A stretch of 64,000 bases of DNA, taken from positions 20,718 to 84,717 of the forward strand of contig CAYPFY010000001.1 of assembly GCA_964410105.1 (NCBI GenBank), read 5' to 3'. The translations under genes and the position numbers were made by a program. How positions within the stretch are numbered: position 1 is the stretch's first letter; each line of letters opens with the position of its first letter. Below are positions 9,418 to 55,598 of this stretch, one piece after another. The notes under the pieces are model-generated. The model was not told the DNA's origin and ran no database searches. It saw only the letters and a program-made list of their open reading frames with translations. The stretch is from an uncultured Chlorobiaceae bacterium. Lineage in GTDB: Bacteria; Bacteroidota; Ignavibacteria; UBA10030; SZUA-254.

Positions 9418-11067
<1,650 letters not shown>

Positions 11068-30362: not shown

Positions 30363-30398
30363 TTTGCGCATCAGGACTTTGTTCTTTTTTTTCGAATA

Positions 30399-31052: not shown

Positions 31053-31053
31053 G

Positions 31054-31824: not shown

Positions 31825-31827
31825 ACC

Positions 31828-32712: not shown

Positions 32713-32715
32713 CCT

Positions 32716-39515: not shown

Positions 39516-39521
39516 GGCCGG

Positions 39522-40523
39522 CTATTGCGCAGAAACGACGATCTCGCCGCCGATGATCTTCGACCGGATCTCTTCCACCCGGGTATGGATGCTGTCCGGG
39601 ATCAGCGTTTTATTGTTATCGTCATAAACATAGTCGACGCCCTTCGACTTCAGGTCGAAGCGGTCGACTGTGCCTCCCTGAAAATGTCCTTCCTTGACCG
39701 CCCGGATCGTCTCAAAGATTGAGTTATCGACGACCTTGGTCATGCTGGTAAGGATGAAGCCCGGCGCCTCGTGGTACTGATCCGAATCGACGCCGATGAC
39801 AAGCTTCTTTCTCTGGCGAGCGGCCTCCATGACTCCCAGCCCGGTTACCCCCGAGGCGTGATAGATGATGTCCGCCCCCCGGTCGTACTGCCCGAGGGCG
39901 AGCTCTTCCCCCTTGCCCGGATTTTTGAACGCTTCGCCGGTCACTCCGGCGTAACCGATGAGAACCTTGCATCCCGGGTTCACATAGTTTGCCCCCGCCA
40001 GGTATCCCACCTCAAATTTTTTGATGAGGGGTGACTGCATTCCCCCGACAAAGCCGATCGTCCCCGACTTTGTCATCATTGCTGCCAGGGCGCCCACCAG
40101 GAAGGAGCCCTCTTCCTCCTTGAATTCCAGAGCCTCGAGATTCTGAGGGATCTGCTTGTTCGGATTGACCGTATAGTCAACGCAGGCGAATTTTTTCCCC
40201 GGAAATTCCTGTGAGATTTTTGTGATGTCGTCGGTGAAGATGAACCCGATGCCAAAAATGACGGCAAGCTCGCTGCGGCTTGCCAATTGCCGCAGCGCAG
40301 CCTCTCTATCGGCCCCGGGTCCGGGTTCGATATATTCAAAATCCACGCCGAGCTCCTTTTTGGCCCGTTCAAGCCCGCGATATGCCCCATCATTGAACGA
40401 TTTATCTCCCCGCCCGCCAACGTCGAAAACCAGCCCGACCCGGAGGCCTGCCGGGGCGTCCGCTTTTTTTGTGCACCCGCTCCAAACAGTCAGGGCGAGC
40501 AGGAGAGGAATCAGTTTGCTCAT
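39522..40523 (-). CDS. BMP-family (PnrA/Med-like) ABC substrate-binding lipoprotein, probably nucleoside-binding
   Basis: Lipobox LALTVWSGC. GLVFDVGGRGDKSFNDGAYRGLERAKKELG. The start is taken at MSKLIPL. Confidence 0.85.
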   Translation of the reverse strand: MSKLIPLLLALTVWSGCTKKADAPAGLRVGLVFDVGGRGDKSFNDGAYRGLERAKKELGVDFEYIEPGPGADREAALRQLASRSELAVIFGIGFIFTDDITKISQEFPGKKFACVDYTVNPNKQIPQNLEALEFKEEEGSFLVGALAAMMTKSGTIGFVGGMQSPLIKKFEVGYLAGANYVNPGCKVLIGYAGVTGEAFKNPGKGEELALGQYDRGADIIYHASGVTGLGVMEAARQRKKLVIGVDSDQYHEAPGFILTSMTKVVDNSIFETIRAVKEGHFQGGTVDRFDLKSKGVDYVYDDNNKTLIPDSIHTRVEEIRSKIIGGEIVVSAQ

Positions 40524-40524
40524 G

Positions 40525-41100
40525 TCAGTCCGTCGGGGGGTTGAAACATTTGCGGCATCGGGCCTCGTAGATGTTTTGTGCTCCCACCACAACCAGTTCG
40601 TGCTGGCCCGTGATCCGTTGAGTCCTGTCGGCCGGATTGCCACAGACCATGCAGATCGCAAGAGTTTTTGTGATGTACTCCGCCACTGAAAGAAGCTGGG
40701 GGATCGGTTGAAAGGGTTTACCCCTGTAATCCTGGTCGAGCCCCGCGACGATGACCCTCTTGCCGCGGTTGGCGAGATGCTCGCATATATCGACGAGGTC
40801 GGGCGTGAAAAACTGACCCTCATCGATACCTATTACCTGAGCGTCTTCGGATAACTCAAGGATTTCCTGAGGCTTGTCGACGACGATGGACGAAAGAGCC
40901 TGTTCGCTGTGGGAGACGATCTGGTGTGAGCTGTACCGGTTATCGATGCGGGGCTTGAATATGGTCACCTTTTGCCTGGCGATCTGCGCCCGGCGGAGCC
41001 GGCGAATGAGTTCCTCGGTCTTGCCGCTGAACATGCATCCACAAATTACTTCAATCCACCCGGTATCGCGTACAGTATTATGTAGGGTTACAACATCCAT
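40525..41100 (-). CDS. tdk: Thymidine kinase
   Basis: [15 protein letters not shown]-loop. C-terminal zinc ribbon CxxC...CxxC. Confidence 0.9.
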
Positions 41101-41492
41101 CTGAGAAGATCTCCACTGAAGGGGAGGGGGAGAAGATCGTTCATTTTCATTTTCTTTGTCCTGCCGTTTACGTCAGCAAGAATCACATCGATGTTGCCGG
41201 CAAGGTCCATGATCACCTGGCGGCAGGCCCCGCACGGGGGAATGAAGGTCGGCATGTCGGAGGTGATAGCGATGGCCCTGAAATGCCGGAAACCGCCGGA
41301 TACAGCCTTGAAAAGGGCAGTGCGCTCTGCGCATATCGTGAGGCTGAATGAGCTGTTTTCGATGTTCGTGCCGGTGATAATCTTACCTGACGCGGTAAGG
41401 AGCGCGGCTCCCACACGGAATTGAGAGAAGGGTGAATGGGAATACCGCTTGGCTTTCTGTGCGGCTGCGACGAGTCTTTTCAATTTTTGCAA
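41088..41492 (-). CDS. cdd: Cytidine deaminase
   Basis: [11 protein letters not shown] ... PCGACRQVI zinc-binding motifs. Confidence 0.9.
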
Positions 41493-41577: not shown

Positions 41578-42735
41578 TCAGTATTCCACCTGCGTGACCC
41601 CCAGCGTCCTCCAGGAAAAGGCGGGATATGTATTCCGAACGACTTTTACCATCGAAATAAAATCTGCGGGAAGGAGTTTCTCGCGTCCTTCGATGCTTAC
41701 TCTCACGAGGTGCTCCGCCCTGTCGAATTCCGGGTCTGCCGCCACAATCTTTCCCCGTCTGAAAAGCGCGCTGAACCCTCCCGGAGCCATGTTCAGGAGG
41801 GTTTCGAGCGGACTTCCATCTGCCCTGTAGACCAGTAAATCTGCCGGTGCTCCCGGCTTGACTGTTCCTCTCTCCATGTCAAGCATCGCTGCCGGGATCG
41901 ATGTTACCATGGCAAACAGTTTTTCCGGGCTCAACCGTTTGAGTTTTCGGGCTTTCCTCATTTCTGATAACAAGGTTCCACCCGAGCTGATTGAGGAATC
42001 GGTTCCGAGAGCCACGCGGAGGTTGTCGATCGGGGAGATGCCGCCATAGAGGTAGGCACCTGAACCGGGACACCATATCAACCCTCGACCATTGGTCTTA
42101 AGCAGGTTTATATCATCCTGTGTCAACCCGAATCCGTGAACCACAATGGTCCGGTCGGTGAGGCCGCCAAGATCGCGAAGTTGCGTCATCTCGGTACTCG
42201 CCAGAGTGTCAGTCCCTTCGGCGAGGTGAATCATAACGGGTTTTTTTGATTTTTTCGAAAGCTTTTTCCTCAAATCCCGGTCAAGGGCGAGCGAATGGAT
42301 CCATTGAAATTCTTTGAATACTTCTACGGGATAATTCGCATAAAAATGACGGAAATAGGCGTCATGATGGACAACGGTGGTGACCCCTGAAAGGATATTC
42401 TTGTAGGCACCCCAGAGGAGGCGGGTCTTGAGGGGAACCGTTAAAACCTGGTCGATGACCTCGCGGCATCGGCTTCTGACATCATGTGTCCATTCAACAT
42501 AGTTAGTGTAAGGCGGTGAGCCCATTGCAGGAAAGAGATCGAACTGAAGGTGAGCATGAGCATTGATCAGGCCAGGAAGGACAACGAAGCCTTCGAGATT
42601 CATAGACCGGACCCCCCTGGGGGAAGAGATTTTTGGGGCGACTGACTCTATCCGCCCTCCCGTTACGTCGAGATCTCGGGTTACGAACGTCCCGTCTTCA
42701 TGGATCAGGGCGTTCCTGAGGATGAACCGGCTCAA
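41578..42735 (-). CDS. Amidohydrolase-family metal-dependent hydrolase. Its start overlaps the methyltransferase stop by 4 nt.
   Basis: GLINAHAHLQFDL metal-binding HxH motif. TIM-barrel amidohydrolase pattern. Confidence 0.75.
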   Translation of the reverse strand: MSRFILRNALIHEDGTFVTRDLDVTGGRIESVAPKISSPRGVRSMNLEGFVVLPGLINAHAHLQFDLFPAMGSPPYTNYVEWTHDVRSRCREVIDQVLTVPLKTRLLWGAYKNILSGVTTVVHHDAYFRHFYANYPVEVFKEFQWIHSLALDRDLRKKLSKKSKKPVMIHLAEGTDTLASTEMTQLRDLGGLTDRTIVVHGFGLTQDDINLLKTNGRGLIWCPGSGAYLYGGISPIDNLRVALGTDSSISSGGTLLSEMRKARKLKRLSPEKLFAMVTSIPAAMLDMERGTVKPGAPADLLVYRADGSPLETLLNMAPGGFSALFRRGKIVAADPEFDRAEHLVRVSIEGREKLLPADFISMVKVVRNTYPAFSWRTLGVTQVEY

Positions 42736-43424
42736 ATCTTCCGAAGGATAAATGTGAGGAGGAGAGGCGTGCCCATGCTCCGGCGGTATTCTTGCTTCTT
42801 TCCGAATGTCTCGAAGACGTGCTCCACGGCGGGTCCGATTGGGGGCTCGTCTGAAAACTCCACCATGAATCCGTTCCGGCTGAACGCGCTGCGGTATTCT
42901 TCCGGAGAGTGCCGATAATGTTGGATTTCCAGTGACTTTCCCGCTATCCCCGGGAGGGCAAAAGTCCGCTTCCAGTCGGAACGCTGCGGGTGGAGATCGG
43001 CTATAAAAACTCTACCGCCCTGCCTGAGGGTCCTCGACATCTCCAGGATTCCCTGGTCAAGCTGCGGGAGATAGCCGAGGACAAGCACGCAGATCCCTAG
43101 GTCGAACACCGATGTCCTGAAAGGCAGTGACTCGAGGCGGGCATTGATGAGAAGATCGTGTCGTTTGGTCCGGCGCGACGCGGCCTGTTTCAGCATCTTT
43201 GGCGAAATATCGACTCCCATCGAGAATTCTGCGCCGGAGCAGACATCGGCGTACCTGCCGGTCCCGCAGCCGAAATCGGCCACTGTTTTCCCCCGGAAAT
43301 CGAGGGACGCGATGTGAGGGGCAAGGAGCTCCCTTTCCATCAGCAGGAGGGGGTTGTCCGTCTCGTAGGACGGCGCCCAGAGATCATAAGCCGTGGCCGG
43401 GGGAAGGGAGTATTCCTGATTCAC
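42732..43424 (-). CDS. Class I SAM-dependent methyltransferase
   Basis: VADFGCGTGRYA motif I. Acidic motif II. Confidence 0.8.
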   Translation of the reverse strand: MNQEYSLPPATAYDLWAPSYETDNPLLLMERELLAPHIASLDFRGKTVADFGCGTGRYADVCSGAEFSMGVDISPKMLKQAASRRTKRHDLLINARLESLPFRTSVFDLGICVLVLGYLPQLDQGILEMSRTLRQGGRVFIADLHPQRSDWKRTFALPGIAGKSLEIQHYRHSPEEYRSAFSRNGFMVEFSDEPPIGPAVEHVFETFGKKQEYRRSMGTPLLLTFILRKI

Positions 43425-44845
43425 CAGCTTGTCCGGTTGAGTATTTTGTAGCGGACGAAGTTGATCACCTCTTTTTCGACCGGGATTCTGTAAAAATCAT
43501 TCTTCATCCGGGCACCGGCAAGGTATCGCAGAGGCCTCCGCCAGCCTCCGCGCTCAGTTGCGAGCTTCGCATAAAACTTGAAATTTTCGACGAACCTCCT
43601 CTCCCGGTCGTTCACCCAGTATCCCGCATACAGGATGAAATCGATATCGCTCCATTCCGAGAGGTTTGAGGGGACGCGGTACCCTTTCCGGACGATGTAG
43701 TCGAAGAGGTCGGTTCCGGGATAGGGCGTGAAAAAGAATATGTTGAACTCGAAGTCAGGATTGATCCGTTTGATCTCCTTGATGGCCTCGAGGGTTTTGA
43801 GGGTGTTCGAGAAATTCTCCTCGGGAAATCCGACGATGAAGCCGAACGCGGCGCCGATTCCGTGGCGGGCCAGCTTTTCGGCGGAGATGATCGATTCCTC
43901 GGCGAGCGTGTCCTTTTTCATCAGATCGAGCATCTCCTGTGACCCCGATTCGGCCCCTATCATGACCTTGCGGAGATTCGAGGCGGAGATCTCGCTCAGG
44001 AAACCGTCATCAAGGGGCGCGATCTGATCAGCTCTCGACGTGGCGGCCCAGCTGAACGTCAGTCCTTTCGCGTTGATGCCCTCGCAGAACTCCAGCACCC
44101 GGCGCCGGTTTGCAAAAAAATTCTCATCCTGAAAGAGCACATCGCTGAGCCGGTAGCGGGAGACCAGATCGAAAACATCGGAGAGCATGCGCGGGCTTTT
44201 GAGTCCCGACCATCGCCGGCTGTAGACGTAGGGGTCGGCGCAAAACGCACAGCGGTATGGGCATCCCTGAGATGAATAGAAGTCTATCTGACGCCTCCCC
44301 TTGAGCCTGAAATACGTCTCTAGCGGGATGAGGCTGTAATCATACCGGGGGAATTCATTGATGTCGATGAATTTCCGTTCCGCATTCTCTTGAAAGACCC
44401 CGTTCCGCAGGTAGGCGAGCCCGGCGATCTTCTCGTATCCGGTATTACTGTCAAAGCTTTCGAGGAGCTCCTTGAAGGTCGCCTCCCCCTGCCCGAAGAC
44501 GCAGTAGTCCGCAAAACCCTCCCGCATGCATTGCTCGGGGAATATCGAGGGATGCCAGCCCCCCCAGACGACGGGAACTTTGGGGGAAAAACTCTTCGCC
44601 ATTGCCGATACGGACACTGCGTCCCTGATGGGGGTCCCGGTGATCACCGAGACGCCAAGGCAGCAGGCGGAAGGGAGGAGCTCCTTCACCTTTGCGTGGG
44701 CCGCGGCGACGCTCTTCTCAATCCGGGCGTCGATGATAGCGACCTCATACGCCTCTCTGTCGATCACCGACGCCAGCGCAAGGTACTGCAGTGGCATCGT
44801 GTAATAGGGCGCCATCGGATTATAGAGTATGATCGTCTTTTTCAT
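43421..44845 (-). CDS. Cobalamin-binding (class B) radical SAM enzyme
   Basis: N-terminal B12-binding Rossmann region. CPYRCAFCADP CxxxCxxC motif. 474 aa. Confidence 0.85.
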   Translation of the reverse strand: MKKTIILYNPMAPYYTMPLQYLALASVIDREAYEVAIIDARIEKSVAAAHAKVKELLPSACCLGVSVITGTPIRDAVSVSAMAKSFSPKVPVVWGGWHPSIFPEQCMREGFADYCVFGQGEATFKELLESFDSNTGYEKIAGLAYLRNGVFQENAERKFIDINEFPRYDYSLIPLETYFRLKGRRQIDFYSSQGCPYRCAFCADPYVYSRRWSGLKSPRMLSDVFDLVSRYRLSDVLFQDENFFANRRRVLEFCEGINAKGLTFSWAATSRADQIAPLDDGFLSEISASNLRKVMIGAESGSQEMLDLMKKDTLAEESIISAEKLARHGIGAAFGFIVGFPEENFSNTLKTLEAIKEIKRINPDFEFNIFFFTPYPGTDLFDYIVRKGYRVPSNLSEWSDIDFILYAGYWVNDRERRFVENFKFYAKLATERGGWRRPLRYLAGARMKNDFYRIPVEKEVINFVRYKILNRTSW

Positions 44846-46326
44846 GCGGGGTATTGCTCCGCCCCTTCGATCTGGGGCTGGCGGTACTTGAATATTTTAT
44901 AGAGAACAAGACGGATCTCGTACGGGCTGAAATACATTTGGAGCCTGTATCGCCACCCGCCCAGGAATTTCAGTATCCTGCGCCTCCACGGGGTAATTTT
45001 AACATCGGCCACGCTCGGAGCGTACGCGCTCAGGACGATCTCAAAGTTCCGGATCTTACGGCGGTGCCTCGGCTTCAGCCATGGTGTAAAGGAGGATTTG
45101 CGCGCTCCGTTGTCTTCCCATCGCGGATCGGCCCAGTCTTCAAGTTTTTGCGGAAATTCGAACCCGAATCTCCTGGCCTCTTCGTAAATCTTCGCTCCGG
45201 GCAGCAACACCGGGGAGTAGGTGTGAAAGACGATTTCGCTCTCCGGATTGATCTGCTTGATCGACCTGATGAAGCCAATATCCTCGTCGATTTTTTGGCC
45301 GATGTTGTCCCCCGGATTCCCGAGGATGAAGGAGAGTTCCGGGATGATGGAATAGTCCTTCATGCGGCGGGCGAAACTCCGGATCGAGTCTCCGGACTGG
45401 GTTCCCCCCTTGTTCATCAGGTTCAAAACCTCGTCGGAACCGGTCTCGGCTCCCGAGAAAATCATGCGGCACCCCGCCTCGTGCATCGCGCCGAGAGTCG
45501 CATCCGAGTATTTCAAGAGCGTATCGATTCTTCCTTCCGCCCACCAGGACATTTTCATCGATTTCAGACGATCGCAGATCTCCGCCGTGCGCTTCTCAGA
45601 GACAAAAAAATTGTCGTCGAAGAATTCAATCGAATCGACCCCATAATCATTCCTGAGCCGGAGCAGTTCGCCGATAAGCCGTTCGGGGCTCTGGGCGAGC
45701 CATTTCCCGCCGAACATTGGGACGACGCTGCAAAAGCCGCAGAAGAAGGGACAGCCGAGGCTCGACACGTATCCGGTCGTCCGCTCACCGAGGTAGGTTC
45801 GCTGCAGATAGCGCTTCATCGGCACGCTCCGGTAGGGGAGGGGCGGCAGTGCGTCGGGATGCACCCATTCCCGCGCTTCGTTCTTCACAGGACCGTGGCG
45901 AGATTTCCATGAAATGCCTTTGACCTTTCGCGGCGCTCCTCCGCCTTCTAAGACCCCGATGAGTTCGGGCAGGGCGCATTCCCCCTGGGACCAGACGACG
46001 AAATCGACCAGCGGGGATTCGATCACTGTCTCCAGGTACACGGATGGGAAACTCCCGCCCCAGATGATTTTTATTTCCGGAAACTTCTTGCGCAGGAATC
46101 GTGATATTTTTATTGCATTCGTGAGCTGAGGTCCGGGCATCACCGTCAATCCCGCATAGCGTATGCCGTGCAGCTCGACGAGCGCCGGGAGCGTGCGGAA
46201 ATCGTCCAGATTCTCATCAAAGATTCTATAGGGAATTCTTCCCTCCAGACCCGAAGCCACCGAAAGGAGAGAGAGAGGCGCACGATGGTTGTTCCGTGCG
46301 CTCCGTGGATTGATGAGCAGGATCAT
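44842..46326 (-). CDS. Cobalamin-binding (class B) radical SAM enzyme, paralogue of the preceding gene
   Basis: CPFFCGFCSV motif. B12-binding N-terminal domain. 494 aa. Confidence 0.85.
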   Translation of the reverse strand: MILLINPRSARNNHRAPLSLLSVASGLEGRIPYRIFDENLDDFRTLPALVELHGIRYAGLTVMPGPQLTNAIKISRFLRKKFPEIKIIWGGSFPSVYLETVIESPLVDFVVWSQGECALPELIGVLEGGGAPRKVKGISWKSRHGPVKNEAREWVHPDALPPLPYRSVPMKRYLQRTYLGERTTGYVSSLGCPFFCGFCSVVPMFGGKWLAQSPERLIGELLRLRNDYGVDSIEFFDDNFFVSEKRTAEICDRLKSMKMSWWAEGRIDTLLKYSDATLGAMHEAGCRMIFSGAETGSDEVLNLMNKGGTQSGDSIRSFARRMKDYSIIPELSFILGNPGDNIGQKIDEDIGFIRSIKQINPESEIVFHTYSPVLLPGAKIYEEARRFGFEFPQKLEDWADPRWEDNGARKSSFTPWLKPRHRRKIRNFEIVLSAYAPSVADVKITPWRRRILKFLGGWRYRLQMYFSPYEIRLVLYKIFKYRQPQIEGAEQYPA

Positions 46327-46356
46327 GATTGAAAGTACTGAAATTTCACCTGCTGA

Positions 46357-47448
46357 TCAAAACCCAAACTCCCTTTCCGGAGCTTTTTCCCAAAACGTTC
46401 TGAAAAATACCATCCCGATCAGTGTATAGGGGGCGATATAGAAGCGATTCGCCGCGGCAGGGAAGAGCAGGAAGTGCAGAATAACGGTGCTCAGAGCGAT
46501 GCTCCCCAGCCGTAGCCCGGCCGATCTTCCCCAACCGGCCGCGGTCCCGCCCAGCAACCCCAGGATCAGGAATAGCAGAAGCGAACTCTCGTTGACAAGA
46601 GCTCCCCACAGGCCCCTGCCCAAGGCGTAACAATAGTTTTTCAGAAAAATCGCCGGACTCGCAACGGCGTCGATCCCAGGAAGCGGCAGAACGGTTTTCA
46701 AGCTAAGTGTACCGAAAAAATAGGTTATGGCGAGGTAGACAGCCGTTCCCGTTCCGAGCAGGAAGAAGTATTCCGCGCGTGAAATCGAGAAACCCCGCGT
46801 GATGAAGCAGGCATATGTTGACCAGATGGCAAGCAGAAGGAGGTTATCCGGCCGGGTGAGAAGCGAAACAAGGAGAAGTGCCCGCGATGCTTTGGAGAAC
46901 CCTTTCACGAGAAGGTAGAAGGCCGCAAGGACGATCGCCGCAGAGAGTGCGTCCGGAGTCGACAATCGGGCACCCTCGAAAACCCCGGCCGCGACCAGTG
47001 TGAGGCACCCCGCGACACTTCCGGCAGGTCCCTGCCGGGCAACCCACGCGCCCACAAGGAGGATGATGACCGCAGCGGAGACGATCGATATGGCGCGCGT
47101 TGCTTCGACTGCGGAAATCCCCAGTTTGCCGAGACCGTAGATGACGGCAACATAGAGAGGCCGGATCCTGTAGAGGGGTATCTGACCGATGAAGAACATC
47201 GGGTTCGAGGCTGTCTCTCTCCGGTAGGGGTTTTCTGCCGATACCAGCAAGCGATAGTTCGAGTCCGGAATCTCTTTCCTGACCGTCTCGTAAGATTTTG
47301 CATGGAGAGCCGCGGGATCGTGCTCTTCGACCGAGTAAGAGGCCGCGGTGTACGCGAGAAGATCCCAGTTATAGTACGGATTCTTCCAGGCGTACATGAG
47401 CATTGCGAGGGTGAAAAGAAAATAAGCGGCTGTCGAAATCCTTTGCAT
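46357..47448 (-). CDS. Polytopic integral membrane protein of unknown function (about 10 TM helices)
   Basis: Hydrophobic profile. Located between the radical SAM and GT genes. No motif recognised. Confidence 0.6.
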   Translation of the reverse strand: MQRISTAAYFLFTLAMLMYAWKNPYYNWDLLAYTAASYSVEEHDPAALHAKSYETVRKEIPDSNYRLLVSAENPYRRETASNPMFFIGQIPLYRIRPLYVAVIYGLGKLGISAVEATRAISIVSAAVIILLVGAWVARQGPAGSVAGCLTLVAAGVFEGARLSTPDALSAAIVLAAFYLLVKGFSKASRALLLVSLLTRPDNLLLLAIWSTYACFITRGFSISRAEYFFLLGTGTAVYLAITYFFGTLSLKTVLPLPGIDAVASPAIFLKNYCYALGRGLWGALVNESSLLLFLILGLLGGTAAGWGRSAGLRLGSIALSTVILHFLLFPAAANRFYIAPYTLIGMVFFRTFWEKAPEREFGF

Positions 47449-47538
47449 GGAAAGCGATTTTCTTCTCAGGAAGGCCCCGCCCGATCCGCCTCATGAAACG
47501 ATGAATGCGATCCCGGGCGGGTGCGCTCCCGATTGAGC

Positions 47539-48759
47539 CTATCCCCGTACCAGCGTAATCTTTGTTATCTCGGGAGGACAGTTGATCCGGATCGGCACGC
47601 CCACCGTTCCGATCCCTCTTGAAACGTACATGAGAGAGGACCCGATCGAGTATTTTCCCGCCACGTACGGGGAGGCGACGCGGGCGGGAGCAATGATTCC
47701 CCCTCCGATGCGGGCGAACACGATCTGCCCTCCGTGCGTGTGACCGGAGAGCGTAAGATCGATATGCCTGCTGGCCGCCTCCTCGAAAAAGTAGGGTCGG
47801 TGGCAGAGAAGCAGGTTCGGACCCTTGGCAGTTTTTCCGACGACACCGTCGAAGAGGCGGGCCGCCCGGTCCGAATTGCCGACGTCGTTCACCCCCAGGA
47901 TATTCAAGAAATCCTCGCCCCGTTTAAGCGTAGCCGCGTCATTCCGCAAGAGCCTGATGCCGCACGCATTGACCTCCCTGGCAACCGATTCCACGTCCCG
48001 CGTGTAGTAGTCGTGATTCCCCAGCACTCCGAACACGCCATCCGGCGCCGCCAGCACCCCGAAGGCCCTGGCAAACGGATAAACCTCGTCGACCATGCTG
48101 TTGACAAAATCCCCGGTCACTGCGATGACATCGGCATGGAGACGGTTGACTTCGTCGGCGTATTCGCGCATCCTCTCCTCCGGCATGAACACGCTCGAAT
48201 GGATGTCGCTGATGAGGGCAATGGTGAAGCCGTCAAATTTTTCGCCCAGATTCTTTACCGGCAGCGTGATGGATGAAATCTCCCCCTGATCCCGATGCCA
48301 CGTGCCGTAAGCCGAGCCGCTGAAGGCGGCGCCCGCGATCGCAATCGCGCCCCGGCGAAGGAAAAGGCGGCGGCGGGCGTCGTAGGCGCGGATGCGCTCG
48401 CGGGACGATTCGACCCACCGGCTGCCCCGACCCATCCGGCCGACGATCCATCCCGCCGTGACGAATGGCAGTGTGACGACTTTTCCCGCCATCAGCAGGA
48501 GAAACAGGAGTGCGAAAGAAAAGTGCCAGATATAAAGGGGTATGATCCAGACGCCGATCGCCCATCGGGGGAGCGATTGCAAGGGGATGAGGAGGAGAAC
48601 TCCGAGGGAAAGGTTGAATACCCCGAATGCGATGGCTCCGAGGAGCCGGATTGAGTTACGGTGGGTTGTCCGGGTGATGGCGCGGTAGAAGTAAAGCTGC
48701 ATGCCGACGAGGAGAAGCATAACGGAGATCTGGAAGAGGAGAAATCGGGTCGACATCAC
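47539..48759 (-). CDS. Membrane-anchored calcineurin-like metallophosphoesterase
   Basis: Four N-terminal TM helices, then GDFVN ... GNHDYYT ... GHTHGGQ phosphoesterase motifs. Confidence 0.8.
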   Translation of the reverse strand: MMSTRFLLFQISVMLLLVGMQLYFYRAITRTTHRNSIRLLGAIAFGVFNLSLGVLLLIPLQSLPRWAIGVWIIPLYIWHFSFALLFLLLMAGKVVTLPFVTAGWIVGRMGRGSRWVESSRERIRAYDARRRLFLRRGAIAIAGAAFSGSAYGTWHRDQGEISSITLPVKNLGEKFDGFTIALISDIHSSVFMPEERMREYADEVNRLHADVIAVTGDFVNSMVDEVYPFARAFGVLAAPDGVFGVLGNHDYYTRDVESVAREVNACGIRLLRNDAATLKRGEDFLNILGVNDVGNSDRAARLFDGVVGKTAKGPNLLLCHRPYFFEEAASRHIDLTLSGHTHGGQIVFARIGGGIIAPARVASPYVAGKYSIGSSLMYVSRGIGTVGVPIRINCPPEITKITLVRG

Positions 48760-49892
48760 GCGTTAGCGGTCGTGGAGAGCCCGAGAACCCTATTGTAGAG
48801 CATTCGGAACTGATGAGCGGTCCAGTCTGCGTCGTGCGCGCAGACCCACCCGTACGCATTACGGCGGAGGCGTGCGGCTTCCTCCGGCTGAGCCAGGATT
48901 TTCAATATTTTCCCGGCCAGCGCCGTGTACTCTCCGGGAGAGACCGAAACGGACGCGTCGGGCCCGAGATCCGAGATGAGGCCGACTTCAGTGCCGCAAA
49001 TGAGCACCCGGCTTGCCGCCGCTTCTGCGACCGCCACTCCCTCTGCTTCGTAGAGAGATGTGTGCAGGAGGGCGTCAGCCCACGAATAATGCTGCGGCAG
49101 CTCGGAGTGAGGAACATAGCCGAGGAACTCCAGCTCATTCCCGAGCCCCAGACTCCGGGCAAGTATTTTCAGCTCCTCGTCGAGCGGACCTCCGCCGATC
49201 ATACGCAACCGCGCGGGAGTCTTCCGCCTCACGAGGTCAAATGCCTTCAGCAGAGTCCCCTGATCTTTTACCCTGTTGGAGAATCCGACATGGAGGAATT
49301 TTACAGCCGAAGCCTCTCGATTGCGGCCATTCGCAAAAAAATCCCTTTCGGCCCCATGCGGGATTACCGCGGAATCCCTTGATACCCCGAATCGCCGGAG
49401 CTCCCTCTGCTGGAAGTTCGTGAGGGTTGTGAGCGCCGTGGCCTTCCGGCATGCCCAGAGCGTCAGAGATTTCAAAGGCTGCTTGCGCATGTCCCCGTAG
49501 TCACAGTGAGGCAAATCGGCTGCCTCCCCTCCCTGGAGGCTCACAATAGCCGGAATGCCGCACAGTTTCCCGAGGACGACCGCGGTCCAGCCGCAGGGAA
49601 ATGCCCAGAAGGCGTGAATGAGATCGAATTTTTTCTGACGATGATCCTCAAAGAATGACCGCATGTATTGCACAATCTTTTTCGGGGCCCTGTCTCCAAA
49701 CTCCGCCCGGATGTAGCGTACCCGCGCTTCGCCGCAGTGAAAGGGCTCACTGTCAAGGTCGGGCTTGACGAAGGAATAGACGGACACCTCAGCCTGCAGC
49801 GAAAGGCGACGGACGAGGCTGACAACTGCGGGGAGGTGCATTCCGGTCGGTCTCCCTATCCCTCCCGGAAGCAGCATGGCCACGCGAGTCAC
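48756..49892 (-). CDS. Family 4 glycosyltransferase (GT-B, group 1)
   Basis: C-terminal EGVAVAEAAASRVLICGTEVG motif region. 4-nt overlap with the upstream GT. Confidence 0.8.
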   Translation of the reverse strand: MTRVAMLLPGGIGRPTGMHLPAVVSLVRRLSLQAEVSVYSFVKPDLDSEPFHCGEARVRYIRAEFGDRAPKKIVQYMRSFFEDHRQKKFDLIHAFWAFPCGWTAVVLGKLCGIPAIVSLQGGEAADLPHCDYGDMRKQPLKSLTLWACRKATALTTLTNFQQRELRRFGVSRDSAVIPHGAERDFFANGRNREASAVKFLHVGFSNRVKDQGTLLKAFDLVRRKTPARLRMIGGGPLDEELKILARSLGLGNELEFLGYVPHSELPQHYSWADALLHTSLYEAEGVAVAEAAASRVLICGTEVGLISDLGPDASVSVSPGEYTALAGKILKILAQPEEAARLRRNAYGWVCAHDADWTAHQFRMLYNRVLGLSTTANA

Positions 49893-50983
49893 ATCCGCCT
49901 CCCGCCCTGGGCCTGGCGGTAAACTTCGGATGCCGCAGAGGCCACCGCCTCGAAGCTCAGGTTTTTATCGAAGTGAGCCCTTATCGCCGAGCGGGAGACC
50001 GGGATTTTCAGAGCCCTGGCTATGGCTTCGCAGCATGAAACAGCGTTTTTCGCAGCCCAGCGCGGTCCGCAATCCTGCACGATCCGTCTGAAGGGCGGGA
50101 TATCGGTGACAACCGGCATGGCTCCGCATGCGATCGATTCTATAAGAGCGTACCCGCTTCCCTCGTGCGAGCTTCCCAGGACAAAATAATCGGCGGCGCT
50201 GTACCACATGCGAAGGCGTTCACGGCTGAGAGATCCCAGAAAATGGATTCTGTCGCTGAGCTCATGAGAGCGGGCGAATCCGCGCAGGACATCGAGGTTT
50301 TCTCCAGAACTGTAGGCCATGTAAAGGTGCGAATCGGGCACCGATCTCAGAGCGAGGGCAAAACCCTCGAGAACAGTGAGCGGGTCTTTATTCTCATTGA
50401 GATGGCCGACCCAGAGAAAAACCTTTCTGCTGCCGAGATCCAGGGTCTTCCTGCATTCCGGATAAGGGAGGGGCTCCATGCGTGTGGAATTTTCCAGAAC
50501 TTCGTGCACCGGACGCTCGCCGATGAGGCTCATCCAGGGCTCTGCCTGCTCCCGGCTTGTGAACATGAACGCATCCACGTGGGAAAAGCCGCGGCGGTAG
50601 AGCCACCGCGATTTTCGCGGAAAACCGCCGCCGTGGTGCTGCCACAGAATTGCTGCGCCAGGGGGGAGGAGACGGCGGAGATGTCCGAAAAAAATCGGAA
50701 TTCCCCCCGCATGCACATAACTGGGGGAAATGCCGGCCGCGAATTTCAGCGCACGGCTCCCCGCGTGCCAAACGAGGGGAGAGAAGCCGTCCCGCAGGAA
50801 ATGGTATTCGACTCCGCGCCGGATGAAATGCGCATCCTGCCGGAAGCGCTGCACGGCGCTGACGCGGGCGAACGGGGTCATCGCCTCGCACCAGTCGCTG
50901 AGGCTCGGATATCTTTCAAGCAAATCTTCCGGGTCGGTCGCGTCGGCCTCGTACCGGGAATTGAGATAGACGAGATGCGGCAC
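49889..50983 (-). CDS. Family 4 glycosyltransferase (GT-B, group 1)
   Basis: EGSGYALIESIACGAMPVVTD (E-x7-E motif). Confidence 0.8.
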   Translation of the reverse strand: MPHLVYLNSRYEADATDPEDLLERYPSLSDWCEAMTPFARVSAVQRFRQDAHFIRRGVEYHFLRDGFSPLVWHAGSRALKFAAGISPSYVHAGGIPIFFGHLRRLLPPGAAILWQHHGGGFPRKSRWLYRRGFSHVDAFMFTSREQAEPWMSLIGERPVHEVLENSTRMEPLPYPECRKTLDLGSRKVFLWVGHLNENKDPLTVLEGFALALRSVPDSHLYMAYSSGENLDVLRGFARSHELSDRIHFLGSLSRERLRMWYSAADYFVLGSSHEGSGYALIESIACGAMPVVTDIPPFRRIVQDCGPRWAAKNAVSCCEAIARALKIPVSRSAIRAHFDKNLSFEAVASAASEVYRQAQGGRRM

Positions 50984-51765
50984 TATCTTTCCCGGCGGCG
51001 GGCTTCGATGAGAATGTGATCTCCGAGCAGCCTCCAGGGAGGAACGGAGCGGATTTTTTCTTCGAACTGGAGCAGGCGTTCGGTGACGCCAGGATGTGTG
51101 CTTATGAATGAGTTCGATCCCGGCGGGGGGGAGACGATGCTCAGCCCGTAGGCGGCGCGGAGCTGAAAATCGCGTTCGATCATCCGGCAGACTTCGGTGA
51201 GCGAGTAGTACTTCACCTGAACTTCACCCTCCCGGAGCCGGACCGGAACGGCCTCGTTCCGCCACCGGCGGAAGGGAGACTTGCCCCGCAACAGAAAGCT
51301 CGCCATCTCCCAGAGACTGTATTTGTTCAGGAGGCAGATCACCATCGAGGCTCCGGGCCTCAGCACGGAGTGAATTGTCGTGAAAACATGGCTCAGATCG
51401 GACGAGCAATTAAGGGCCCCGAAGTTCGAGAGGACGCCGTTGAATGTTTTGTCAAGATTCTCGAGCGATTCGTAGGTGAGCTCGCGAAGCTCGATCATGT
51501 GGCCGAGGTCGAGAAGAGAGATTTTTTCGCCTGCCCTCTGGATCATCCGCGCCGAGGAATCGATCGCCGTCACACGTATGCCGCGCTGGGCAAGCATGAT
51601 GGCATCGGTGGCGGTGCCGCAGCCGAGATCCAGGACCTGGTCGCCCGCCTGAAAGTTTCTCTGCGCCGCGCTCCAGACGACGGAGCGGATCCTGCGCGCG
51701 ATTTCTCTTCCCTCGAATGCCTCATCGTAGGCGACGGCTTCGCCGTCGAATGCATCAGTTTTCAT
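50983..51765 (-). CDS. Class I SAM-dependent methyltransferase
   Basis: VLDLGCGTATDAI motif I. Confidence 0.8.
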   Translation of the reverse strand: MKTDAFDGEAVAYDEAFEGREIARRIRSVVWSAAQRNFQAGDQVLDLGCGTATDAIMLAQRGIRVTAIDSSARMIQRAGEKISLLDLGHMIELRELTYESLENLDKTFNGVLSNFGALNCSSDLSHVFTTIHSVLRPGASMVICLLNKYSLWEMASFLLRGKSPFRRWRNEAVPVRLREGEVQVKYYSLTEVCRMIERDFQLRAAYGLSIVSPPPGSNSFISTHPGVTERLLQFEEKIRSVPPWRLLGDHILIEARRRER

Positions 51766-53147
51766 GTCCGTGAGTATTTTGAGAATTCCATGCCGAGCCG
51801 CGCAAGCTTGGACTTGACAAGCGCCGACGCAATGGTCCCGAAATGTTTTCTCCCGTTGCGGCGGAGCTGGTGCTGGCGAACTTCGTTGACGAGGTACCTG
51901 TTCGCGTACCAGTAGAATCTCTTGGTATTCCGCCCCGAATAGTTCAGGTCTCTGTCCGTATGCCCGCTCCAGTCCGCGGGGCCTGTGAGCCGCACTTCCA
52001 CCTCCGAAAAATATTCAGTTCCCTTGATCGGATAGGCGGTGGTCGTCAGAAATGTATCGGCGCCCGTTTCCTTCAGATGCTTGACTGTGAGCTCGATGTC
52101 CTCGATCTCCTCTCCCGGGTATCCTAGCATGACGAAAAGGCCCGTCTGAATGCCGTGACGGCGCGCGAGCTTGGTGACAGTGCGGATTTCTTCCACGGAG
52201 ACTCGCCGCTTCATTGCATCGAGGATCCGCTGCGATCCGCTCTCTGAGCCGTACCAGATCCGGAACGATCCCAGCTCGGCCATTTTCCCGAGAATCTCAT
52301 CCGTGAGCCTGTCGGCGCGCGTGATGCATTCGAAGGGAATCCTGAGGTTCCTGCGCTTCATCTCTTCATGGAAGGCGGAAAACCACCGGTGATTGATCGT
52401 GAAAACATCGTCGGCGAACCAGAGCATGTCGGGTTTGTACCGGGCCAGGATTTCTTCGATCTCGCTGACAACATTCTCCGGAGAACGTCGCCTGTGGGTC
52501 TCACCATAGACGGACCTGCTGCACCACGTGCAGGTGTAGGGACATCCCCGGGCGCAGATCAGCGACAGGGAGCCCCGTCCATGATGCCGGCGCCAGGTTT
52601 CGATATACAGGTTCACATCGATCGATTCGCGGTCCGGCAGGGGAAGCGCGTCGAGATTCGCTATAAGCGGACGGGGAGGGGTTCTTGCGATTGAGCCATC
52701 GTCTTTGCGGTAAGCGATGCCTGGAATAGCGCCGAGCGAGGTTTTGGCCAGGAATGCGGGGATGAGCTCCTCCATCGCCATTTCTCCCTCACCCATCACG
52801 GCCGCGTCCGCACCCCAGGCAACGTATTTTTCTGCATATTCGGGCACATCAGGCCCCCCCACAACCACCGAGCATCCCTGTCCCTTACACACGGTGATCT
52901 GCCTTAAAACGTTCAGTTTTGTCATCAGGTTCGAATAAATCCCGACGACGGAAGGACGGTGCAGCGCAATATAATCGTCGAAATCCTGCTTTGTCCGGAA
53001 TGTCGTGTCGAACACTTTGACATCGAATCCCTTTTTTTTCAGGTAGGCACTGATAGAGAGAATACCGAGCGCGGGGTAGGGCTTCATGATCCGGCGCTCC
53101 GCCTCGTCCTCGTCAAGGAAATAGCCGTGCGTCAGGAGCGCATCCAT
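51762..53147 (-). CDS. Cobalamin-binding (class B) radical SAM enzyme
   Basis: CPYTCTWCSRSVYG motif. The start is set at MDALLTHGYFL, whose ATG shares one base with the upstream stop (TGATGG). The track ORF runs further upstream, but that stretch overlaps the preceding gene. Confidence 0.85.
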   Translation of the reverse strand: MDALLTHGYFLDEDEAERRIMKPYPALGILSISAYLKKKGFDVKVFDTTFRTKQDFDDYIALHRPSVVGIYSNLMTKLNVLRQITVCKGQGCSVVVGGPDVPEYAEKYVAWGADAAVMGEGEMAMEELIPAFLAKTSLGAIPGIAYRKDDGSIARTPPRPLIANLDALPLPDRESIDVNLYIETWRRHHGRGSLSLICARGCPYTCTWCSRSVYGETHRRRSPENVVSEIEEILARYKPDMLWFADDVFTINHRWFSAFHEEMKRRNLRIPFECITRADRLTDEILGKMAELGSFRIWYGSESGSQRILDAMKRRVSVEEIRTVTKLARRHGIQTGLFVMLGYPGEEIEDIELTVKHLKETGADTFLTTTAYPIKGTEYFSEVEVRLTGPADWSGHTDRDLNYSGRNTKRFYWYANRYLVNEVRQHQLRRNGRKHFGTIASALVKSKLARLGMEFSKYSRT

Positions 53148-54652
53148 CAGATAATTCCTTTGGATTGCAGCCGAGAGAGCTTCGCTTCCAGGGGCGGGAG
53201 AGTGGCGGCGTGATAGGCCATCGCGAGCAGATCCCGCACATTTTTTCTGGACATCGACCCGGGATGGACGCTTAGATTTCGCAAGATGTCCTGCCCCTGC
53301 CAGAGTCGGAATCGCTTGTGCGTTACCGTGTGGAGCATCCGGTAAAAATCCGGGACATATGTCCCCCGAAACATCAGGTGCAGATCCTGGCTGTCGACCC
53401 AGTTCTGTTTTTCCCCCAGTTCCGACCTTACTTTTTCGAAAAAGGGAGTTCCGGGGAGGGGATAGGACACCGAGATTCCGATCTCGTCCGGCTTGCATTC
53501 CTTCACCAGGCGGAGCGTTTTATCGATATCCTCCCGGTCTTCGCCCGGATATCCGAATTGAAGGAAAAAGCCCACACGGATCCCGCTTGTGCGGAGCTGG
53601 GACGCCGAGAGACGGATCTGCTCGATAGTTGTCCCCTTTTCCATCGCGTCAAGAATCTTTTGGGATCCCGATTCCGCTCCTATCCAGACCGTGTGGCATC
53701 CGGCGCGGCCGAGATTTCTTATTGTGTCGTCGCGGAGCAGGAGGTCCGCACGCGAGAGGCACTTGAAGGGAATCTTTCCCTTCTCGCCGGAGAGCAAACC
53801 CGCAAATTTCTCCACCCACCCGGGTTTCAGCCCGAAAATATCGTCGCAGAACCAGAGGTGGTCCGGTCTGATGTTTTCCCTGATCTGCAGCATCTCTGCG
53901 ATCACGTTTTCAGGGGATCGGGAGTGGTAAACCTGACCATATATAGGCTTTGCGCACCAGTTGCAATGAAAGGGGCAACCCCGTGTGGTGACGATATTTG
54001 TAGAAAAATATCCGTGTCTTTCCCAGGCCTTCCGATACGAGCGGAAGTCGATGAAATCCCTTGCCGGAAAGGGCAATGTGTCGAGATCATGGAGGAGAGG
54101 CCTCTTCACCGACCGCTCGAGCCCGGACTTATCGCGGTAGGCGATTCCCTGGATTTTCCCAACATCGTGGGATCCATCCTTAACTGCTGAAACCAGTTCG
54201 CTGAGCGTGATTTCCCCCTCACCGAGCACCACAAAGTCGGCGCCATGGTCGATATAGGACTCAGCATGATCGGCCGGGTCAGATCCATGGACGATCACGG
54301 TGCATCCACGGGTCTTTGCGAGCGCGGTCATGCGGAATGCAGCCTCACGCATCCTCTCGAGGCACATCTTTGTGAGATAGTTGAAATCGTCGTCATAAAT
54401 GACAACAATTTTAGGAGAGTAGCGATCGAGGTATAAGGATATTTCCCCGGGGTCTGAGGCGAGCATGCTATCGAAGAGCTGACACTTCAGGCCGCGGGAG
54501 CGGAGGTAGGCGGCGGCGTAGAGGGTGCCAAGCGGCGCATAGGGCATCATTGCGCCGTATTCCTTCGGGTCGAACCTCAGGAAATAGGAGTGCGTAAAGA
54601 GAATATCACACTCCCCCTCGAGCCGGTCTTCTTTGTTTTCTCTTCGGAGCAT
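53147..54652 (-). CDS. Cobalamin-binding (class B) radical SAM enzyme, paralogue of 51762..53147
   Basis: CPFHCNWCAKPIYG motif. The start is set at MLRRENKEDRLEGECDILFTHSYFL, by analogy with the paralogue's LLTHGYFL N-terminus and to avoid the NTase gene. Confidence 0.8.
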   Translation of the reverse strand: MLRRENKEDRLEGECDILFTHSYFLRFDPKEYGAMMPYAPLGTLYAAAYLRSRGLKCQLFDSMLASDPGEISLYLDRYSPKIVVIYDDDFNYLTKMCLERMREAAFRMTALAKTRGCTVIVHGSDPADHAESYIDHGADFVVLGEGEITLSELVSAVKDGSHDVGKIQGIAYRDKSGLERSVKRPLLHDLDTLPFPARDFIDFRSYRKAWERHGYFSTNIVTTRGCPFHCNWCAKPIYGQVYHSRSPENVIAEMLQIRENIRPDHLWFCDDIFGLKPGWVEKFAGLLSGEKGKIPFKCLSRADLLLRDDTIRNLGRAGCHTVWIGAESGSQKILDAMEKGTTIEQIRLSASQLRTSGIRVGFFLQFGYPGEDREDIDKTLRLVKECKPDEIGISVSYPLPGTPFFEKVRSELGEKQNWVDSQDLHLMFRGTYVPDFYRMLHTVTHKRFRLWQGQDILRNLSVHPGSMSRKNVRDLLAMAYHAATLPPLEAKLSRLQSKGII

Positions 54653-54677
54653 GGGATCTCTGAAGCGGAGGGGTCCC

Positions 54678-55598
54678 TTATAAGCGGGGAGCATCGCCCG
54701 ATTCTTCCGCTTCGTGAAGTTTCGCATCATAAAGCGCCATAACCTTTTGGGAGAAATTCCCCACGTAGGCGCGTGATTCGTGCTCGCTTGAACGAAAGAT
54801 ATGGGCGCGGGTCCGAGCGTCATACTGAGGATATCTGCGAGCCCAGACCCGGATCATCATATGCATGAGCGAGCGCTCGAGAGAATCGGCCCAGTGCCCT
54901 GAGAAGGGGATTTCGAAAAAACGCTGAAGCAGACTCTTGCGGTTGTTAGCCTCGTATGAATTGAGCCCGCAGTTCTGGTAGTTGGGGAAAAACTCCTTGA
55001 TCCAGTTATTGGCGTTCAGATAACGGAGATAAAGCTCCATATTGAAAAGGGGCTTCAGGTGGGCGATCTCCGTGGCCGTATAATAGTTTCTCTCTTGGAG
55101 CGTGAGACATTCCGTATCGATGTAGTAGTTGAGGCAAAAGTACTTTTTGCTGTTTAAAAGAAAGAGTTTCTTGAAAAGCATCAAGAGGGTTCTCGTGATC
55201 CAGAGGCGGCCGGGGGAAGTGATGATCACGTAGTCGATATCGCTTCTGGGATTGGCGACCCCCTTCGACAGGTCTCCCGAGATGAACACAGCCCGGACGA
55301 AGGGGAATCTCTTGATAATATGTGCCATGAACCGGGCGATTCTCATCCGTCTCCGGGCCCGGCGATGTCGCTCGGCCCGGATCTTTGAGAATTGACGCCC
55401 GTTGAGCTGAAAAAACCCGTCTGCGGCCGAGAGAAGTCCCTCATCGGTCAGTTTATCCAGCCATGAGCTCATAGTCACCCTGGAGAGGGAATTGGCGGGA
55501 AACAGATAGAAAATCTCATCGGCCGTGAGAGGATGGTCGAAGATTTCGTAATAGAGGAGCGTGCGTCTGAGAAGATGCCTGAATTCCGGGGGGGGCAT
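54678..55598 (-). CDS. Hypothetical protein with a nucleotidyltransferase-fold (Pol-beta-like) motif
   Basis: FISGDLSKGVANPRSDIDYVIITS (GS...DxD). First gene of the co-directional array. Confidence 0.5.
   Translation of the reverse strand: MPPPEFRHLLRRTLLYYEIFDHPLTADEIFYLFPANSLSRVTMSSWLDKLTDEGLLSAADGFFQLNGRQFSKIRAERHRRARRRMRIARFMAHIIKRFPFVRAVFISGDLSKGVANPRSDIDYVIITSPGRLWITRTLLMLFKKLFLLNSKKYFCLNYYIDTECLTLQERNYYTATEIAHLKPLFNMELYLRYLNANNWIKEFFPNYQNCGLNSYEANNRKSLLQRFFEIPFSGHWADSLERSLMHMMIRVWARRYPQYDARTRAHIFRSSEHESRAYVGNFSQKVMALYDAKLHEAEESGDAPRL

Follow-up and report, generated by a model that had tools for sequence, protein, structure and literature searches.

In a 64,000-nucleotide stretch of contig CAYPFY010000001.1 from an uncultured Chlorobiaceae bacterium (assembly GCA_964410105.1, positions 20,718 to 84,717; hereafter, the window), a chromosomal operon of 12 genes, all on the minus strand, occupies positions 41578-55598. 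Gene 1 is U306 (54678..55598), with a winged helix, a Pol-beta/kanamycin-nucleotidyltransferase (NTase)-like domain and a helical C-domain. It is followed by rSAM-A (53147..54694), a radical S-adenosylmethionine (radical SAM, rSAM) protein of class B architecture with the motif CPFHCNWC and a start at ATG 54694 or ATG 54652; by rSAM-B (51762..53147), a class B radical SAM protein of 461 amino acids (aa) with the motif CPYTCTWC and a start at 53147; and by MT1 (50983..51765), a class I SAM methyltransferase with the motif DLGCGTA. The middle of the operon consists of two GT4 glycosyltransferases, GT4a (49889..50983) and GT4b (48756..49892), the membrane-anchored calcineurin-like metallophosphoesterase MPE (47539..48759), and TM10 (46357..47448), a polytopic glycosyltransferase of a rare family with a GT-C fold. 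The 3' part comprises rSAM-C (44842..46326), of class B architecture with the motif CPFFCGFC, the class B radical SAM protein rSAM-D (43421..44845; CPYRCAFC), the class I SAM methyltransferase MT2 (42732..43424; DFGCGTG), and gene 12, a deaminase-type amidohydrolase (41578..42735). The initial annotation had described eleven minus-strand genes at 42732-55598, and all eleven open reading frames (ORFs), with all six motifs quoted for them, are found there; the amidohydrolase, whose TTG start overlaps the TGA stop of MT2 (TTGA), had been missed.

Almost all junctions within the eleven-gene run had been described as start/stop overlaps of 1-4 nt. Such overlaps (ATGA, GTGA or TGATG) are present at 7 of the 10 junctions, including those that join MT1 to GT4a (1 nt) and GT4b to MPE (4 nt), but the remaining three differ: U306 and rSAM-A overlap by 17 nt or are separated by ~25 nt, according to the start codon chosen, and gaps of 90 nt and 30 nt lie between MPE and the GT-C gene and between the GT-C gene and rSAM-C. 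The GC content of the locus (0.55-0.60) is like that of the rest of the window, and the flanks contain housekeeping genes (NusA, IF-2, PNPase, Lnt, cargo proteins of the type IX secretion system (T9SS), and methylmalonyl-CoA mutase), which indicates that the locus is part of the chromosomal core of an Ignavibacteria-like bacterium from the FCB group. A scan of the whole window against Rfam detected no riboswitch or other RNA, and scans for sigma-70 promoters and terminators gave matches at chance level. By hydropathy, no membrane segments are predicted in the GT4s, the four rSAM proteins, the methyltransferases or U306.

The Radical_SAM domain (PF04055, cut-off 29.5 bits) is above threshold in all four rSAM proteins (70.1 bits for A, 81.6 for B, 40.8 for C and 52 for D), each of which contains the CxxxCxxC motif. 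The B12-binding domain (PF02310, cut-off 32.1 bits) passes in rSAM-B at 51.7 bits and in rSAM-D at 57.8 bits, and is sub-threshold, though significant, in A (27.6 bits, E = 3 × 10−6) and C (28.9 bits, E = 1 × 10−6). Of the earlier description of four class B proteins, each with a B12-binding region, Pfam thus confirms the radical SAM domain throughout and, above threshold, the B12 domain of B and D. Alignments to NCBIfam families of B12-rSAM proteins reach the N-terminal regions of the rSAM proteins. Judged by architecture, all four are class B and candidate users of cobalamin. AprD4 has been reported to function without cobalamin. Comparison with solved structures shows that AprD4, a sugar diol-dehydratase, is the best PDB relative of rSAM-C and rSAM-D (69 bits for D), that QCMT (9ccb, 69 bits) and AprD4 (66 bits) are in a near tie for rSAM-A, and that the top relative of rSAM-B is QCMT, a peptide glutamine C-methyltransferase; a search of the PDB with an rSAM-B profile matched solely B12-type rSAMs, methylthiotransferases and ELP3. 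The view that the operon encodes four cobalamin-dependent methylases is accordingly not established, with two B12 domains under threshold and AprD4 as the nearest or nearly nearest solved relative of three of the proteins.

The four proteins form two paralogous pairs, A and B (36% identity) and C and D (27%), and the orthologs of A, B, C and D are clearly distinguishable from one another across phyla. A duplicated rSAM-rSAM-methyltransferase triad was considered and rejected: it would pair A with C and B with D, and MT1 and MT2 have no BLAST similarity. In some Ignavibacteria-type loci, a fifth gene for a radical SAM protein of the B12-binding kind (474 aa) lies between rSAM-A and rSAM-B (L010 1776-3197, L011 8548-9969 and L015 8572-9993). 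Other inserts occur at the same place in L017 (6660-8172), L021 (9465-9959) and L014 (9391-9885); their kinds are a PIG-L de-N-acetylase with a DNA_alkylation-family protein, a 165-aa membrane protein without a Pfam family, and a SnoaL-like protein.

None of the twelve operon proteins attains the cut-off of any family in NCBIfam (release June 2026), whose curated cut-offs we used as the measure of membership. The top matches are HpnJ for rSAM-A (136.7 bits vs. a cut-off of 577.6) and rSAM-C (109), and BchE for rSAM-B (135.6 vs. 481) and rSAM-D (123); scores against HpnJ (TIGR03471) are 117.5 for B and 101.8 for D. The best rSAM scores against other families are also below the cut-offs (95 vs. 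650 for HpnR, TIGR04367; 118 vs. 360 for TIGR04072; 121 vs. 600 for PhpK; 82 vs. 450 for BzaD; and 112 vs. 360 for MgmA/QCMT, TIGR04014, with BchE being TIGR02026), and the same applies to models of radical SAM enzymes that act on ribosomally synthesised and post-translationally modified peptides (RiPPs; 87 vs. 282 for TIGR03975 and 130 vs. 750 for ApyD). On these cut-offs together with gene context, hopanoid, BchE/BchQ/R-type, ladderane, phosphonate P-methylase and Bza assignments were dropped. The hidden Markov model comparison proposed in the initial annotation, in which the rSAM proteins were to be set against known families, thus leaves them below the cut-offs of HpnJ, HpnR, BchE and TIGR04072.

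The model of U306 has high confidence (predicted local distance difference test score, pLDDT, 92.6) and consists of the winged helix, a Pol-beta-type NTase domain and the helical C-domain. The motif G-S...DxD...E is invariant across the U306 family (S107-G108, D120, D122 and E177), whereas Foldseek relates the fold to those of MNT, AadA/ANT and DrrA only weakly (E > 0.01). U306 itself has no Pfam match (one family member scores 20.7 bits vs. 21 for NTP_transf_2), and a sequence search of the PDB with U306 gave no match. For the Pol-beta-fold NTase assignment made earlier, the motif is therefore supportive and the fold weakly so, and the protein is best described as a putative NTase. The family is large (6055 cluster representatives at E ≤ 1 × 10−3), and its domains occur fused to Bac_transf (phosphoglycosyltransferase, PGT), to GT4, and to a class I methyltransferase. 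The fusion with PGT sits in a locus with GT4, GT4, Wzy and epimerase genes (L090), and the GT4-U306 fusion in a locus with PGT, DUF1972-GT, Wzy and RgpF genes (L091), where it is directly followed by an rSAM-A ortholog (526 bits) and, further downstream, by a carbamoyltransferase and an rSAM-D ortholog (390 bits). U306 is the strongest link of the operon to glycan assembly.

The assignment of two class I methyltransferases and two GT4 glycosyltransferases is confirmed by Pfam. MT1 matches Methyltransf_25/31/11 (top NCBIfam match CpaM, 69 vs. 180), and MT2 matches Methyltransf_11 at 64.6 bits (DVU_1556-family, 59.5 vs. 155) and has an ortholog in L036; in most related loci, the position of MT2 is held by a methyltransferase with an NPPY motif (F6) instead. 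For GT4a, solely the C-terminal domain is above threshold (Glycos_transf_1, 72 bits) and orthologs are limited to few loci, e.g., L023 and L040; GT4b matches Glycos_transf_1 (89.8 bits), Glyco_trans_4_4 and Glyco_transf_4, with BshA as its top NCBIfam match (71 vs. 274). MPE had been described as a calcineurin-like phosphoesterase anchored by four transmembrane segments, and it indeed contains a Metallophos domain (40.5 bits, cut-off 21.5) after four strongly hydrophobic N-terminal segments, with scores below the equivalog cut-offs of YaeI (114 vs. 188) and LpxG (93 vs. 350). At residues ~128-157 of MPE, a twin-arginine-like stretch, RRRLFLRR, is followed by a weaker Ala/Gly-rich hydrophobic stretch and then by the catalytic domain, so that the motif is not N-terminal; the start codon is probably right because MPE orthologs are equally long.

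TM10 had been recorded as a ten-helix membrane protein of unknown family. It has no Pfam family, contains about 11-12 helices and has a GT-C fold, with fold-comparison figures of 17.3 for ALG12, 16.7 for Pmt4, 16.6 for ArnT, 15.9 for AglB and 12.4 for PimE. An Asp straight after the first transmembrane helix is invariant, and TM10 thus combines the two features of the GT-C superfamily, namely the GT-C transmembrane fold and an acidic residue in the first extracytoplasmic loop, in an assignment that is based on fold and not on sequence. By sequence profile, TM10 matches neither GT87 nor PMT_2 (no Pfam match, and a probability of 0.2 in hhalign comparison with GT87-type neighbours), and its sole NCBIfam match is NF046093 (26 bits vs. 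150). The gene contexts of TM10 homologs, a phage-like contig and an unrelated locus, are uninformative. On the phage-like contig (L002), a distant homolog (E = 5 × 10−9) at 10001-10993 accompanies terminase, portal and resolvase genes and is reminiscent of phage-encoded glycan-modifying GT-C proteins.

The amidohydrolase matches Amidohydro_1 at 68.6 bits, and its HxH, HLAE, H and D elements form the cog0402 deaminase site, in which H60, H62, H170-E173, H200 and D246 are invariant. It is 26-33% identical to the family that lies directly upstream of rSAM-A in eleven related loci from Anaerolineae and other Chloroflexota, has these and many further invariant residues in common with that family, and is orthologous to the Anaerolineae partner of A-B-MT1. 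Its nearest relatives in the PDB are the cog0402 amidohydrolases 3hpa, 4dyk and 4gbd, the 5'-methylthioadenosine/S-adenosylhomocysteine (MTA/SAH) deaminase 4f0r, and TM0936, and it is far under every equivalog cut-off (e.g., 42.6 vs. 522 for 5'-deoxyadenosine deaminase). In other loci, either the amidohydrolase (e.g., L054, L067 and L072) or U306 (e.g., L039, L042 and L052) lies directly upstream of rSAM-A, never both; the window is the sole locus seen in which the two occur together. Downstream, an 85-nt gap separates the amidohydrolase from a nucleoside-salvage block on the minus strand (36105-41492) that encodes cytidine deaminase (cdd), thymidine kinase (tdk), a Bmp/PnrA-type binding protein, an ATP-binding cassette (ABC) ATPase and two permeases. 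The cdd, tdk and Bmp genes also follow the locus in related Ignavibacteria-type genomes.

To the extent that one genome per GTDB species was scanned, relatives of rSAM-B are present in 278 species, and the 80 best are 52-73% identical and represent at least 8 phyla; a sequence search likewise gave very many orthologs at 60-70% identity, and rSAM-B is the most conserved protein of the system. Carriers include Ignavibacteria and 'Bacteroidota' metagenome-assembled genomes, KSB1, many Anaerolineae and other Chloroflexota, Acidobacteriota, Myxococcota (Polyangiaceae), Latescibacterota, Gemmatimonas, and a Pleurocapsa genome. We classified the six-frame ORFs of these loci with the proteins of the window and counted co-directional neighbours within 10.5 kb in the 35 loci with full flanks. 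MT1, always immediately 3' of rSAM-B, was identified in 30 of the 35 loci, rSAM-A in 29, U306 in 21, rSAM-C in 20, and the NPPY-motif methyltransferase in 14, followed by GT9 (13), GT87 (13), GT4 (10), a Wzx-like flippase (9), MPE (9), rSAM-D (8, besides the ortholog in L091), the amidohydrolase (7) and a SPASM rSAM (5).

These counts show that the conserved unit is a frame (U306, rSAM-A and rSAM-B, and a methyltransferase, usually with the second pair, rSAM-C and rSAM-D, and a second methyltransferase) round a hypervariable glycosylation cassette, the genes of which, across loci, are GT4, GT9, GT87/GT-C, Wzx, phosphoesterase and SPASM-rSAM genes. In the window, U306, A/B and MT1 form the 5' part, GT4-GT4-MPE-GT-C the middle, and C/D, MT2 and the amidohydrolase the 3' part. 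In Ignavibacteria-type genomes, the locus occupies one syntenic site, which is bounded by a PASTA gene/rpe and by cdd/tdk, and the genes between MT1 and rSAM-C change by genome (GT9-GT87-MPE; GT87-MPE-GT87; GT9-GT4-SPASM-GT87; MPE-GT4-GT4; or none). A genome-neighbourhood comparison had been suggested as a check on whether the eleven genes and their order are conserved; solely the rSAM/methyltransferase/NTase frame is kept, and the glycosylation genes of the middle vary. A conserved frame with a hypervariable middle is like the organisation of O-antigen loci and suggests selection on a surface structure.

Glycan genes were identified in at least 26 of the 35 loci and GT-C genes in at least 14, both counts being lower bounds. 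GT9, GT87, GT4 and Polysacc_synt are annotated beside the core in related loci; in Anaerolineae, the region downstream of rSAM-C encodes GT87, a SPASM rSAM, a GNAT protein and a couple of GT-C proteins of PMT_2 type; and two loci have an inserted PIG-L de-N-acetylase gene, which in L017 separates rSAM-A from rSAM-B and in L066 lies close to rSAM-B. The core thus recurs beside glycan-assembly genes in unrelated phyla and in differing arrangements, which provides several independent lines of evidence for the link. Taken together, the GT4s and the GT-C protein of the operon, the GT9, GT87, PMT_2 and Wzx genes of related loci, and the U306-PGT and U306-GT4 fusions in Wzy-type loci favour the membrane-associated envelope-glycoconjugate pathway that the initial annotation had proposed, whereas a lipid tail as the target finds no support in gene context.

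We consider it somewhat more probable than its negation (about 0.55) that the operon makes a radically remodelled sugar and joins it to a cell-envelope glycoconjugate; confidence in the single steps is much lower. Besides the conserved frame, the recurrent glycan partners and the U306 fusions, the tight coupling of the genes speaks for this reading, and so does AprD4, which acts on a sugar and is the best solved relative of C and D and nearly the best of A. The substrate, the chemistry, the order of steps and the membrane topology that we infer would be as follows. At the cytoplasmic face, a carrier lipid, either polyprenyl phosphate or some glycolipid, would be loaded with one or more sugars by the GT4s, and the soluble enzymes would act in the cytoplasm on the lipid-linked or nucleotide-linked sugar. 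The rSAM pairs may functionalise unactivated sugar carbons by C-methylation, deoxygenation or ring contraction, for which MoeK5 and GenK, AprD4, and HpnJ and Cds (PMC13459092), respectively, are precedents. The class I methyltransferases could then O- or N-methylate hydroxyl or amino groups of the product, and U306 could act on an intermediate by nucleotidylation or phosphotransfer. After the unit is flipped, the GT-C protein would, in the manner of ArnT and PimE, pass it to an acceptor beyond the cytoplasmic membrane, and MPE might strip phosphate on the periplasmic side. The simplest role for the amidohydrolase would be to clear the inhibitory by-products 5'-deoxyadenosine and SAH of the four rSAMs and two methyltransferases. 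A broader and more tentative proposal, which we hold at less than even odds, is that of a hitherto unrecognised cross-phylum module of two to four class B rSAMs, an NTase-like protein and methyltransferases. Working on a lipid carrier, these enzymes would produce a sugar that is C-branched, deoxygenated or carbocyclic and that GT-C enzymes would then install on the surface; this would be the first radical-SAM/B12-dependent step in bacterial surface-glycan assembly.

Several observations weigh against a remodelled envelope sugar. The rSAM proteins score about alike against peptide-, lipid-, tetrapyrrole- and phosphonate-modifying families of NCBIfam, and because these scores are nearly equal, sequence alone does not indicate a sugar substrate. 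Within the window, Pfam detects no initiating PGT, Wzx or Wzy gene, so that the locus does not qualify as Wzy-dependent; related loci do have such genes, 9 of the 35 containing Wzx, and L090 and L091 containing PGT with Wzy. By the queries used, 9 of the 35 related loci contain no glycan gene. The fold matches of U306 are weak, its N-terminal winged helix could instead indicate a regulator, and the amidohydrolase, which adjoins cdd, tdk and nucleoside-transporter genes, could instead have a role in nucleoside salvage.

Of the competing explanations, all unlikely, the most probable is that the product is no envelope component but a specialised metabolite that is soluble and resembles an aminoglycoside, an aminocyclitol or a nucleoside. 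Across loci, the genes resemble an aminoglycoside toolkit (GT4, PIG-L deacetylase, SPASM rSAM, AprD4-like and B12 rSAMs, N-/O-methyltransferases and a kanamycin-NTase-like protein), and the deaminase is of nucleobase-deaminase type; however, no cyclitol synthase or aminotransferase is present among the annotated genes of the window or of the sampled loci, the GT-C, GT87, PMT_2, Wzx, Wzy and PGT partners indicate lipid-linked extracytoplasmic assembly, and the single shared chromosomal site in Ignavibacteria-type genomes, with GC content like that of the rest of the window, looks like a vertically inherited core function. Those same glycan partners, and the fusions of U306 to PGT and GT4, also make it rather improbable that the rSAM proteins methylate, cyclise or cross-link the hydrocarbon chains of a lipid tail or polycyclic lipid (hopanoid, branched glycerol dialkyl glycerol tetraether (brGDGT)-like or ladderane-like) to which the glycosyltransferases add the head group alone. 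Such tailoring would agree with the membrane proteins encoded in the locus, with the weak similarity to HpnJ, HpnR and TIGR04072 ('lipid biosynthesis B12-binding/radical SAM protein'), and with the B12-binding type of many characterised lipid-modifying rSAMs (PMC13459092; PMC11214058). Yet the scores are far under the cut-offs of all three families, the search of the PDB with the rSAM-B profile returned nothing beyond the three groups given above, and the Pfam-annotated neighbours include no squalene-hopene cyclase, hpn, or acyl or ether lipid genes.

It could also be argued that two independent rSAM modules merely flank an insertion hotspot for unrelated glycan-gene islands, given that the middle cassette varies among otherwise syntenic genomes and that L034 contains the frame without glycan genes. 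We judge this improbable: start/stop overlaps join the frame to the 5' end of the cassette (at its 3' end, the 30-nt gap precedes rSAM-C), core and glycan genes are found together in unrelated phyla and in differing orders, and a GT4-U306 fusion adjoins an rSAM-A ortholog in L091. Least probable of all, in our view, is the modification of a peptide or protein, either a RiPP or an envelope protein that is C-methylated and glycosylated. The top rank of QCMT among the solved relatives of rSAM-A and rSAM-B, the weak matches to ApyD and to RiPP C-methyltransferase models, and the inclusion of protein O-mannosyl- and oligosaccharyl-transferases in the GT-C fold are compatible with it, but scores for ApyD and TIGR03975 are far under the cut-offs, genes for a protease, leader recognition or ABC export are all absent from the operon, and the same core is found in Wzy/PGT polysaccharide loci. 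A RiPP, which the initial annotation had also disfavoured, is unlikely because the operon is too tight for a precursor peptide ORF, its gaps being 25-90 nt.

Elsewhere in the window, the regions 92-6914 and 9418-11067 encode two large proteins, one with He_PIG/SprB repeats and T9SS sorting (1115 aa) and one of BNR/sortilin type (1089 aa), as well as methylmalonyl-CoA mutase; because the latter is encoded in the flank, the host uses cobalamin outside the operon, too. On the plus strand, 30246-35292 encodes a Rieske protein, cytochrome b and a split subunit, after which comes a multi-CxxCH protein of 858 aa; from these sequence features, the genes probably specify a complex of cytochrome bc type and its large multihaem partner. 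On the minus strand, 28595-30229 encodes a putative BshC-like protein (bacillithiol synthesis) of 544 aa.

We found no curated family or paper that describes this system. U306 and TM10 have no Pfam family, and literature on B12-rSAMs in connection with polysaccharide, heptosyltransferase, Ignavibacteria or brGDGT gave no account of the cassette, in agreement with the earlier statement that no characterised pathway matches. In a 2026 review of B12-rSAM enzymes, polysaccharide, glycan and lipopolysaccharide are words that never occur (PMC12931638), and a 2026 review of lipid rSAMs treats, in the sections consulted, lipid tails and head groups and nothing else (PMC13459092); neither mentions a role in surface-glycan assembly. 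If a sugar is indeed remodelled and ends on the surface, the operon would represent a new chemical route to envelope diversity, would provide a function for the U306 family and for a rare GT-C family, and would tie surface structure to the supply of cobalamin in groups that are abundant and uncultured, among them Ignavibacteria, Anaerolineae, KSB1 and Acidobacteriota. Students of radical SAM mechanisms would also gain four new subfamilies that are highly conserved. The cassette is a well-defined and tractable target.

Comparison with known systems shows partial likeness in each case. The hopanoid side-chain pathway HpnI/HpnK/HpnJ and the archaeal calditol synthase Cds follow the same logic: a membrane lipid receives a hexosamine or hexose from a glycosyltransferase, deacetylation by a hydrolase may come next, and an rSAM remodels the sugar by contracting its ring (PMC13459092). 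HpnJ is also the top NCBIfam match of rSAM-A and rSAM-C. However, these scores are at most one quarter of the cut-off, there is no hpn or shc gene among the annotated neighbours, and, in place of their one rSAM, the operon contains four rSAMs with two methyltransferases, GT4 and GT-C glycosyltransferases, and a cog0402-type amidohydrolase. MoeK5 (moenomycin) and GenK/GenD1 (gentamicin) are B12-dependent rSAM sugar C-methyltransferases encoded in clusters with glycosyltransferases and class I methyltransferases. They share class B architecture with the proteins described here and act on sugars of glycosylated, partly lipid-linked molecules, but belong to actinomycete antibiotic clusters, whereas the cassette described here is chromosomal, is spread over many phyla and has GT-C, Wzx and Wzy among its partners; this comparison is by description and not by sequence (MoeK5 is named in PMC11214058). 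The diol-dehydratase AprD4, responsible for C3'-deoxygenation in apramycin, resembles the rSAM proteins in its class-B-like architecture and has a sugar as its substrate, whereas scores against the NCBIfam AprD4 model are 60-81 vs. 500, and no AprD3-like reductase was identified. BzaC/BzaD/BzaE, of the anaerobic benzimidazole pathway, combine two paralogous B12-rSAMs with an adjacent class I methyltransferase, as the operon does, but the BzaD model gives 50-82 vs. 450, no bzaA/B or cobT gene is annotated among the neighbours, and the context here is glycan assembly. With the Arn (undecaprenyl phosphate-4-amino-4-deoxy-L-arabinose, Und-P-Ara4N/ArnT) and mycobacterial decaprenyl-P-arabinose/PimE pathways, the operon would share GT-C delivery, whereas the modifying enzymes of those pathways are dehydrogenases, transaminases and epimerases, not rSAMs. 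In its proposed working, the operon comes closest to the head-group remodelling of HpnI/K/J or Cds, the sugar tailoring of MoeK5, GenK or AprD4, and GT-C delivery of Arn or PimE type; by the available tests, it belongs to none of these kinds.

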